64,000 nt of DNA from Elsinoe ampelina (lineage: Eukaryota). Positions 32,817 to 36,194 of this stretch are shown here, piece by piece. A program made the position numbers and the translations under genes. The notes under the pieces were generated by a model. It worked only from the letters and a program-made list of their open reading frames with translations. It searched no databases and was not told the DNA's origin. The stretch spans positions 671,392 to 735,391 of the forward strand of contig ML992505.1 in the NCBI GenBank assembly GCA_010093995.1, read 5' to 3'. The stretch's first letter is position 1; each line of letters starts with the position of its first letter.

Positions 32817-33497
32817 TCAAAGAAAGATATGCTTGTATGATAGATACCCGCGGTTGCCTGGCGCTGAGTGGTGCTGAACATGTTCGTCTCTTCTCTCATC
32901 TTGCTCGACAGCCAATTGTCGCCATTTCACCAGCGGTGAGAGCATCTCTCACGTCCATCGTCGTTCATCTCACCTCCTGCATCACTGCACGAGCCTTGTC
33001 TTTTAAGGCAGTCGGTAACCCAGCTACACCACCCCCACCATGATGACATGGCCACTGTTCAAGCAATCCTTCGAATGCTTAACTTTCATCATAATTATAT
33101 CCGCTCAATATGCTAATACCATCTGCTCGATCTTTCTACAATCATCTCGCCCCTCTTCTCCGTCTCCCGGAAAACAATTCCGCCCCCTTCTTGACCCGCA
33201 AACGTCATCGGGATCTGCCCCCTCTCTGCCCACGATTCAAAGCCCGACATCACACAAAGTCCAATGTGGGGTGAACCGGGACCCGTTCTCAAAAAGGCAG
33301 CCGAGACCTCTCTGTTCCCGACGACATTGATCTGCCGAGGGGTAATTATTTTGTTTGATCTGTTTCTCATTGCTCCGTCTCTTACACATTGACATTTGGG
33401 ATTGATTCTGAGAGCAAAGGACGACAGAAGTGAAAGTAGCAGACATAAAAGAAAGACCGGGAATCTCAAGAGCGGGGAATCCTGCACGAAAAGTCCA

Positions 33498-34662
33498 ATG
33501 GCGTCTCAAAAGCCGGCTGCGTTGCTGGTTGGTGGCATTACGCATGCGAACAAAGAGTGGGAGGAGTTTGGCAAGGATGTAGAGCTGCTGGTAAGTTCAA
33601 TCAGCCGTTCGTCGATTTCTTCCGTGGACTTGTGGCGGTCCGGCAGCAAAGGGTGGGCATGGAATGGCCTACACCAGATGGCCCACAAAGTCACAGCCTA
33701 CGGAAAATCACGACGCGCAAGCAGACATACGATCAACCTAACACATCATCCAGGAATACCGACAAGGCAACCGCACCGAGTTCCTCGCGGACCTCAAGTC
33801 TGGCAAATACTCCAACGTCACCTACCTCTACCGCTCCAACGAATCCCTCTCCGTCACCGGCCCCTTCGACCAAGAACTCATTTCCCTCCTCCCTCCATCC
33901 CTCAAATACATAGTCCACTCCGGAGCAGGCTACAACGGCGTCGACGTCCCCGCCCTCACCGACCGGGGCATCGCCTTCTCCTCCACCCCCATCGCAGTCG
34001 ACGACGCCACCGCCGACGTCGCCCTCCTCCTCATGCTGGGCGCCCTCCGCCGCGTAACCGTCCCCTTCACCGCAGTCCGCAAAGGGGAATGGCGCGGCAA
34101 AGACTTCAACCTGGGCCACGACCCCAAGAAGAAAACCCTCGGCATCCTCGGGATGGGAGGCATCGGACGGGCGGTGGCGAAACGGGCAAAAGCCTTTGGC
34201 ATGACGATCCAGTACCACAACCGGTCGCGACTGAGCGAGGAACTCGAGGACGGGGCGAGGTACGTCTCTTTCGACGACCTACTGGCGACGTCGGATGTGA
34301 TTTCGCTCAATCTGGCGCTGAACCCGAGCACGACGCATATCATCGGGGAGAAGGAGTTTGGGAAGATGAAGGACGGGGTGGTGATTGTGAACACGGCGAG
34401 AGGGCCGATTATCGATGAGGCGGCGCTGGTGGAGGCGTTGGATAGTGGCAAGGTTTTCAGTGCAGGGTTGGATGTTTTCGAGGAGGAGCCGAAGATTCAT
34501 CCCGGGCTGCTCAAGAATGAACGGGCGGTGTTGTTGCCGCATATTGGGACCGCGACGTGGGAGACGCAGAAGGATATGGAGTTGTTGGTGTTGGAGAATT
34601 TGAGGAGCGCGATTGATGGCAAAGGGTTGGTGACGCAGATTCCGGAGCAGAAGGGAAAGTAG
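33498..34662 (+). CDS. D-isomer-specific 2-hydroxyacid dehydrogenase (glyoxylate reductase-like); intron 33591-33753; possible alternative last exon ending at 34729
   Basis: GAGYNGVDV, LGILGMGGIG Rossmann motif, IVNTARG, GLDVFEEEP, LPHIGT. Confidence 0.92.
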
Positions 34663-36194
34663 GTTGACCTGTTTCCTTTTGGGACAAGGATATCTGCTGA
34701 TGAGAGGTAGATTGAAGAGTAGACTTTAGATAGCGGGGTTTCTTTACATGGTTTTTTTTTGGTGCTCACTTGGAAGGATTTCGCTGATGGTTGTCCCCTT
34801 GCGGCACGAGATGTACATGAGATGCCGCAGCATCAAAGGAGCAACATGTTTCCGAGATGGACGTGGTCGTGAGAGGTCCAGACAGTGCATTGACTGTATA
34901 GGCGATCTACACCAACGTCTTCACAGCGATATGAATCACGTATAGTCTCCTTAGGCCCGAGTGTCAAAGTCACCTCAAATGAGTGCATGTCCAATCTCCA
35001 AGGGTCCTTGAGCCGCATCCCAACCCGTGATGATCCCTCTGCCAGTGCCAGGCTCGGAAGGGCTCGTACTTTGAGACATGCAACACGATTGAGGCGGTGA
35101 GAACCACTGTCCTGGGAATATGCCACGCCGCCATCTGTTGGTCGACTGTGCCGTATGTTGTCATCTTAATATCAACCCGTGGCATCCGGAGTGGCTCGCT
35201 GTCGGGAGGATCTGCCAAGTAGTGCGGCGGTGGAGGTGTTGTCAATTCCACGCCGCATGGTTAGGTCAGGTCAGCTCGCTGATGCCTGCCTTGATCCTGT
35301 CTCGTGTCATTTCCTGTCGTTCCATTGATGACTTGACTGCCAGCCATGGTTGGTAATAAAGAACCCTGCATCAGGTGCTTGAATCGTGATTGAAGAAAAA
35401 TCCAAGCTGCTTGGAGCTGACATCCAGCGCATCTCCCGGCTCGGATACCGGGGCATATCAGAGCCGCAGATTGCCTGACCCTCCACGGGAATACCTCGCA
35501 AGGCAATTGGAGATTGGAACCTGACCCATGGGGAAATTAGGCCAGCGAAGAGAGACACAATGAGATCCGTGAACGACATGGCATTGGGTTTCTTGAACTA
35601 CGCGACTCGACAAACAAACCCTCGTTTGACATGATTCGTGTTGGCGAAAAGCGGCGCGAGATTCGGAGATCAATTGCCATTTCAGATGGACAATTCGCCA
35701 AATTGGCGAAGCCGCAATCGACAGAAGCTACGAGGGGGAAAGGTGAAACTGGCACGACTGGAAAGCCAAAAGGTGGTGGATGAAGTTTGGGACATCGGAT
35801 GCCGTCCACGCTAGTGTATATCAAGCTAGGCTGATCTATTCTTGGATCGACGCAGTTGGCTCTCCCCTTCTATCCAATCACTCTTCCACGTCTGTTGAAT
35901 GTTCCCATCAGAGTGGCTTGAACCTCCCAGCGAACAAGATCCACGCATGCCGGCATGGCTCAGGTCGAGCTATTCACCCGCTGTATCAACCCATGGCCTC
36001 AAACGTCATAGCCTCGACGCCGCACGCTTGTTGATCTTTTGGTATGAGGGCTGATAGTGCCTAAAGCCTTGTGTTGGTATTTCGCCAACTCTTTTTTACT
36101 TACCCCTTTCCCCAAATCTTATGACGAATCATGGTGTTCATTTGATCCTCAGCTGTTCTTTTGCTTTCTAGGCCTTGCATGGGAGGTTGAGGTC

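Follow-up and report, generated by a model that had tools for sequence, protein, structure and literature searches.

The window analysed here is a stretch of 64,000 nucleotides (nt) from Elsinoe ampelina (assembly GCA_010093995.1, contig ML992505.1, positions 671,392 to 735,391 of the forward strand), and all coordinates below are counted from its first letter. It carries a gene for a predicted D-2-hydroxyacid dehydrogenase on the plus strand, with the start codon at 33498, two exons and an additional, optional terminal intron (Table 1). The 5' splice site of this intron takes in the stop codon of the main frame, and removal of the intron opens a short C-terminal extension that ends in a type 1 peroxisomal targeting signal (PTS1). 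Here we describe the gene, the two forms of its message and the corresponding ends of its orthologues, and consider what the arrangement may mean for the location of the enzyme.

The gene and its terminal intron

Table 1. Features of the dehydrogenase gene in window coordinates (X1, X2 and X12 are sequencing runs described in the next section; UTR, untranslated region)
Feature	Coordinates	Strand	Description
Exon 1	33498..33590	+	ATG and 30 codons, 31 codons in all, MASQKPAALLVGGITHANKEWEEFGKDVELL (translation)
Intron 1	33591..33753	+	163 nt, GTAAGT...CTAAC branch...CAG; absent from every contig seen
Exon 2, common coding part	33754..34658	+	2-Hacid_dh catalytic and NAD-binding domains; reads ...LVTQIPEQKGK
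5' splice site GTAGGT	34659..34664	+	contains the TAG stop (34660-34662) of the retained isoform
Optional terminal intron	34659..34710	+	52 nt; GT..AG joint in contigs
Putative branch site GCTGAT	34696..34701	+	CTGAT fits CTRAY, A at 34700; from the sequence only
3' splice site TAG	34708..34710	+	observed joint ends at 34711
Mini-exon, coding part	34711..34729	+	A finishing an AAA Lys codon, Leu-Lys-Ser-Arg-Leu, TAG (34727-34729)
3' UTR, minimum extent	34730..34993	+	contig ends: X12 at 34922, X2 at 34993, X1 past 35000

On its domain content the gene product is a D-2-hydroxyacid dehydrogenase: both Pfam domains of the family, PF02826 (1.9e-58, 197.2 bits, cut-off 25.1) and PF00389 (4e-17, 62.6 bits, cut-off 24.6), score above their curated cut-offs, and the family named in the preliminary description of this DNA is thus right. 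The GxGxxG motif of the Rossmann fold reads G133-M-G135-G136-I-G138 and is invariant in an alignment of 48 orthologues (exon-2 numbering, here and below). The same holds for R216 (in the stretch NTARG), E245 and H263, which we take to be the catalytic Arg/Glu/His of the family. Among solved structures the closest is 3wnv_A, a fungal protein deposited as 'glyoxylate reductase' (E 1.3e-132, residues 1-301 of 302 aligned); the next glyoxylate reductase structures follow at 1e-50 to 1e-52, and other glyoxylate, hydroxypyruvate, hydroxyphenylpyruvate and mandelate enzymes at 1e-39 to 1e-52. We take the enzyme from this to be a glyoxylate (or hydroxypyruvate) reductase of the GOR1/3WNV type, its substrate and cofactor being predicted. 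The database names of the orthologues conflict, and include glyoxylate reductase, hydroxyisocaproate dehydrogenase, hydroxyphenylpyruvate reductase and mandelate dehydrogenase-like.

The coding frame and the terminal intron meet in a compact arrangement: the donor begins with the G that closes the last AAG codon, and its bases 2-4 form the stop codon. Since the stop lies inside the 5' splice site, splicing and termination at the TAG at 34660 are mutually exclusive. The branch consensus is CTRAY, and the A of the putative branch site is placed 10 nt before the acceptor. Translation of the intron-retaining form gives a product of 333 residues that ends in ...QKGK, and translation of the form in which 34658 is joined to 34711 gives one of 338 residues that ends in ...QKGKLKSRL. 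The preliminary description had drawn the donor over the stop, the GCTGAT element, the TAG acceptor and the 52-nt intron between them correctly to the base, and the two C-terminal ends it had given are both reproduced by translation.

The PTS1 consensus is a C-terminal tripeptide of the pattern [SAC][KRH][LM], of which -SRL is a canonical instance. The spliced isoform has this tripeptide at its very end, with Lys at positions -4 and -6, and the -KGK end of the retained isoform falls outside the pattern: the PTS1 is encoded by one isoform only. The deposited annotation of the gene is the unspliced form of 333 residues, 100% identical to an Elsinoe ampelina protein.

Other routes past the stop are conceivable from the local sequence. 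A 46-nt intron that uses the in-frame acceptor GAG at 34702-34704 would give the tail ...QKGKGRLKSRL, and a 64-nt intron that uses the in-frame acceptor TAG at 34720-34722 would give ...QKGKL; both joints are absent from the contigs of the four runs described below. The latter tail is also the annotated end of the E. australis orthologue (P0005). Translational read-through of the TAG would yield VDLFPFGTRISADER followed by a stop, which has no PTS1, and we discard it as a way to the peroxisomal form.

Two forms of the message

The presumed RNA data are Logan contigs of four public runs, X1, X2, X5 and X12. These contigs are taken as cDNA because intron 1 is missing in all four runs: the joint from 33590 to 33754, which skips 163 nt with GT..AG borders, is present in each of them (X1, X2, X5 and X12), and no contig of these runs covers the interior of the intron at 33642-33698.

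The contigs show two forms of the message at the terminal intron. The spliced joint 34658>34711, which skips 52 nt with GT..AG borders, occurs in three of the four runs (X1, X2 and X12), which come from three studies; the retained form also occurs in three (X1, X2 and X5). In X1 and X2 both are present together, as the two arms of one assembly bubble: a 60-nt spliced unitig and a 112-nt retained unitig, which are exactly the arms expected from a 52-nt optional segment in a 31-mer graph. The word depths of the spliced and retained arms are 29.6 and 78.1 in X1, and 6.3 and 10.4 in X2. Their sums come close to the depth of the upstream contig in each run (107.7 vs 117.5 in X1; 16.7 vs 17.9 in X2), and as a rough indication only they suggest that the spliced share in these two runs lies roughly between a quarter and a third. 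X12 has a single contig of 1288 nt, spanning 33420-34922 with both introns removed (depth 17.3), and X5 has a retained contig of 1221 nt that is unbroken from 33753 to 34740 (depth 43.2); these two runs show only that the balance of the isoforms can fall on either side. The preliminary description had set junction reads against retention as one of its checks: both forms are seen, so that over the runs as a whole some messages are spliced at this intron and others are not.

Two strains at least are represented in these data, since X1 is identical to the window while X2, X5 and X12 differ from it at 34047, 34056, 34260 and 34263. All four differences fall on third codon positions, and none lies in the terminal intron or the mini-exon; with the codons read by eye, one of them replaces Arg by Ser (34258-34260) and the other three are silent.

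The two forms could also be read as stages of a single pathway, in which the enzyme is in effect constitutively peroxisomal, the terminal intron is spliced slowly, and messages that still contain it are unfinished or nuclear RNA yielding little protein. The contig of X12, where only the fully spliced form was assembled, agrees with this. The depths do not: the retained form is the deeper one in X1 and X2 and the sole one in X5, with intron 1 fully removed there. As intron 1 has been fully removed from the same molecules, retention is specific to the terminal intron and not a property of generally unprocessed RNA. Furthermore, the enzyme read from the retained form is complete, and its end coincides exactly with the donor. 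We return to this alternative with the orthologues, and taken together we hold it to be unlikely.

Neither message is expected to be a target of nonsense-mediated decay, because 16 nt separate the last junction of the spliced form from its stop, and in the retained form no junction follows the stop. Beyond the gene itself, the X1 contig with exons 1-2 is 3951 nt long and extends about 2.7 kb upstream beyond 33300, and the X1 contig that follows the mini-exon continues past 35000. The transcripts of the neighbouring genes thus apparently overlap or abut this one, the ends of contigs carrying no information on true transcript ends.

The C-terminal ends of the orthologues

The protein set comprises 119 homologues among the matches listed (window's own protein excluded), which are 67-89% identical, and 118 of them have a conserved xEQ motif near the end. 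In what follows a strict PTS1 is [SAC][KRH][LM], and a loose one is a related end, e.g. -AKI, -ARI, -ANI, -ASL or -SNL. A tail of more than 4 residues after xEQ is found in 42 homologues, and 32 of these tails are PTS1-like (9 strict, 23 loose) and 10 are not. The nearest relative, the E. fawcettii orthologue P0004, is annotated with 338 residues and ends in ...PEQKGKLKSRL, which is the tail predicted here for the spliced form. An AlphaFold model of this E. fawcettii form has a mean predicted local distance difference test (pLDDT) score of 90.9, and 71 over the last 8 residues; its last helix spans 300-318 and coil follows, an end that, in this monomer model, fits a free tail that might be accessible to a receptor.

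For DNA-level comparison we used metagenome contigs scanned with the orthologue alignment, keeping the best 80 of 564 relatives. The C-terminal motif was located in 26 of these 80 loci, the other 54 (distant, bacterial or truncated) being left unclassified. Contiguous PTS1-like ends are present in ten of the 26: strict in L003 (-AKL), L021 (-SRL) and L034, L035 and L037 (-SKL), and loose in L004 (-AKI), L026 (-SKI), L027 (-ANL) and L033 and L038 (-GHL). Pleosporales-like orthologues (L004, L027 and the proteins P0061-P0116) belong here, with ends such as -AKI, -AKM, -ANI, -ARI and -ANL that are encoded contiguously and involve no intron. That so many loci carry a PTS1-like end directly is also a point in favour of a constitutively peroxisomal enzyme.

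Three further loci of the 26 have the layout of the window, with the stop inside a donor and a PTS1 hidden behind it. In L002 the frame reads ...CAAGTCAAG TAA GT, and a 77-nt intron with the donor GTAAGT leads to the tail ...QVKAKL. L005 has AAG TAG GT, that is the donor GTAGGT, with a GCTGAT branch site and a 75-nt intron that leads to ...KKKSNRASKL. L001, which is 98.7% identical to an Aureobasidium protein, has AAG TGA GT with the donor GTGAGT, and a 144-nt intron that leads to ...NKPAPTASRL. Together with the E. fawcettii protein annotated with KLKSRL, these bear out the suggestion in the preliminary description that hidden PTS1 signals might lie past the stop in orthologues. Wherever the stop is overlapped by a consensus donor and the frame lacks a direct PTS1-like end, a strict PTS1 is hidden (4/4 such loci, window included). 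Across the four loci neither the introns (52, 77, 75 and 144 nt) nor the tails can be aligned, and only the class of the final tripeptide is kept. This conservation of the tripeptide class is the signature of selection on the signal itself, and the family seems, from the ends collected here, to alternate between hard-wired and splice-gated targeting. L015, with its stop at 2496, presents a different end, ...PEQSKLP, that is -SKL plus one Pro codon, and has no donor over the stop; its signal may be decayed or differently exposed.

Intron retention and short introns in the 3' region are common in fungi, and the splice could accordingly be noise, or a neutral 3'-UTR intron, with an -SRL that is coincidental and has no effect on localisation. 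The expected frequency of such coincidences was obtained from shuffles, in which the donor was kept and the next 330 nt were dinucleotide-shuffled (3000 trials per locus). Introns were counted if they were 40-300 nt long, had a [CTA]AG acceptor with a YTRAY branch 5-45 nt upstream of it, and gave an extension of at most 20 residues. For the flank of the window, a strict PTS1 arose in 19/3000 shuffles with any candidate intron and in 1/3000 with an intron of 52 nt or less; the shuffled flanks of the orthologue loci gave 64/3000 (L001), 16/3000 (L002) and 8/3000 (L005). The chance of a strict PTS1 is thus about 0.3-2% per locus across these four loci, yet all four loci with the layout have one. 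Coincidence also fits poorly with tails that differ in both length and sequence (KLKSRL, KAKL, SNRASKL, NKPAPTASRL), and with the direct PTS1-like ends of other orthologues, and we regard it as very unlikely.

The optional intron might instead mainly set the fate of the mRNA, with an altered 3' UTR that affects its translation, export or stability, and not the address of the protein. Splicing does change the 3' UTR by 52 nt, and would place a junction complex 16 nt before the new stop. Such a role, however, leaves unexplained why four divergent loci all have a canonical PTS1 at the end of the new frame. No conserved RNA element was seen, no search being aimed at one, and we give this reading hardly any weight.

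Mechanism, implications and comparison with known systems

The preferred reading, which we hold with considerable confidence, is that a splice-gated PTS1 lets one gene make two enzymes that are identical except for their C-terminal ends. In this mechanism a 52-nt terminal intron, which is weakly used, has the stop of the main frame within its 5' splice site. With the intron kept, translation stops at the TAG at 34660, and the 333-residue enzyme, having no targeting signal, would be expected to stay in the cytosol. With the intron removed, the stop is lost and five more codons are read, which gives a 338-residue enzyme ending in -KLKSRL. By what is established for PTS1 and its receptor, this -SRL would be bound by Pex5 and the folded enzyme imported into peroxisomes, where the peroxisomal share would probably reduce glyoxylate or another 2-ketoacid inside the organelle and consume NAD(P)H. 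The roles named in the preliminary description, a redox shuttle or glyoxylate handling, are likewise predictions, as is any regulation of the ratio of the two isoforms.

Several points weigh against this reading. The kind of the four runs (RNA) is only guessed, and contigs drop minor variants and give no true isoform ratios, starts or ends, so that the 'only spliced' state of X12 and the 'only retained' state of X5 are weak observations. Most homologues with the xEQ motif (76/118) are annotated with an end at most 4 residues after it, with Lys as the last residue in 51 of the 76. The L001 intron relies on a weak AAG acceptor. Half of the classified loci (13/26, orthologues or paralogues) have neither a direct nor a hidden PTS1 by the criteria used, several of these being near-duplicates or more distant paralogues; one close relative, L006 (best segment 82% identical), ends in ...AEQKKKK TGA AAC with the stop at 2471 and has neither a donor nor a PTS1. 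Passages of PMC6981350 report yeast Gor1 as cytosolic or mitochondrial and not peroxisomal, and a PTS1-like end can be non-functional, as described in part of PMC3850452 for the -SRE of plant GLYR1. The short annotated ends, together with the crystallised 3wnv_A chain (330 residues), which ends there too, also speak against a constitutively peroxisomal enzyme.

More tentatively, the GOR1-type glyoxylate reductases of Dothideomycetes, and those of the wider Pezizomycotina perhaps as well, might carry the PTS1 as an old and evolutionarily mobile module that passes between a hard-wired state (the Pleosporales-like -AKI, -AKM and -ANI ends, contiguous in L004 and L027) and a splice-gated one (Elsinoe, the Aureobasidium-like locus, L002 and L005). 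The gated form would be regulated by conditions, given that only spliced messages were assembled from one run and only retained ones from another; we consider this possible, though less than an even prospect. If true, it would amount to an adjustable peroxisomal valve for glyoxylate and NAD(P)H, convergent with the light-regulated hydroxypyruvate reductase (HPR) of pumpkin.

With this gene, the few metabolic enzymes known to be sent partly to fungal peroxisomes by way of a hidden PTS1 are joined by a candidate 2-hydroxyacid dehydrogenase of the glyoxylate reductase type. Glyoxylate arises in peroxisomes from the glyoxylate cycle and purine breakdown, and should the peroxisomal isoform exist, the peroxisomes of fungi would be able to reduce glyoxylate or another ketoacid by a route of their own, with a bearing on peroxisomal redox balance and on glycolate and oxalate metabolism. 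At the level of annotation, the deposited 333-residue model misses one isoform; as most orthologues are annotated short, predictions of the peroxisomal proteome for these fungi are likely incomplete. The layout of a stop inside the donor (G|TAG|GT, G|TAA|GT, G|TGA|GT) gives an easily searched signature by which further cases might be found.

The splice-gated PTS1 is itself a known mechanism, and what is new, as far as we found, is a glyoxylate-reductase-type enzyme as its carrier. In the literature we found no fungal glyoxylate reductase or 2-hydroxyacid dehydrogenase described with a peroxisomal splice isoform, nor any account of this enzyme in fungal peroxisomes, though the supplementary candidate lists of Freitag 2012 might include the family; by title or abstract, the papers found on cryptic PTS1 signals do not treat this enzyme, and Gor1, YPL113C and YGL185C are not mentioned in PMC9513677. 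The cases of differential splicing to a PTS1 tabulated in PMC3798809 are the malate dehydrogenase (MDH) of Y. lipolytica, the 6-phosphogluconate dehydrogenase of C. albicans, the GAPDH of U. maydis, the PGK of A. nidulans and the hydroxypyruvate reductase of pumpkin.

A close parallel in the splicing event is the MDH of Aspergillus fumigatus and Lipomyces starkeyi, for which passages of Hurtig et al. (2020, RNA, PMC7491326) describe that the annotated cytoplasmic protein comes from messages that keep the final intron, and a PTS1 from those in which it is spliced; the MDH of Yarrowia lipolytica uses alternative 3' sites (Kabran et al., 2012, as cited in PMC7491326). In the A. fumigatus and L. 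starkeyi MDH, as in Elsinoe, removal of the final intron replaces the stop and creates the PTS1, the event is conserved over long evolutionary distances, and the enzyme is an NAD(P)-linked ketoacid/hydroxyacid dehydrogenase. The two enzymes nevertheless belong to unrelated folds and families, and in MDH, going by the same passages, the splice adds one residue and alternative 3' sites 4 nt apart play a part, whereas here one donor and one acceptor are seen and five residues are added. The GAPDH of Ustilago maydis and the PGK of Aspergillus nidulans, with cryptic PTS1 signals reached by alternative splicing (Freitag, Ast and Bolker, 2012, as summarised in PMC3798809), are likewise 'cytosolic' fungal metabolic enzymes that gain a C-terminal PTS1 in a splice isoform. 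These are glycolytic, and by that summary their dual localisation and phenotype have been shown by experiment, whereas the present case is known from RNA and conservation.

A PTS1 hidden behind a stop is also reached by read-through in mammalian LDHB and MDH1 and in fungal PGK and TPI, where the mechanism, unlike here, is ribosomal; parts of PMC4359377, PMC5133446 and PMC4207609 describe these, and describe for the dehydrogenases that a minor share goes to peroxisomes and is proposed to serve peroxisomal redox shuttles. Within the enzyme family, 3WNV has the same domains and the conserved C-terminal ...TQVPEQK motif, and its crystallised chain ends right after PEQKK, which corresponds to the short form; its record makes no mention of a peroxisomal isoform. 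A system close in both enzyme and mechanism is that of pumpkin HPR1/HPR2, in which differential splicing near the 3' end decides the presence of the PTS1 and is regulated by light (Hayashi et al., 1996; Mano et al., 1999, both via PMC3798809). Like the Elsinoe enzyme, pumpkin HPR is of the D-2-hydroxyacid dehydrogenase superfamily and of the glyoxylate/hydroxypyruvate reductase type, and in both splicing near the 3' end decides the PTS1. The pumpkin gene is a plant gene, for which that account has the ratio of cytosolic to peroxisomal enzyme set by splicing under light regulation, and the splice-gated PTS1 of pumpkin and that of Elsinoe are likely of independent origin.

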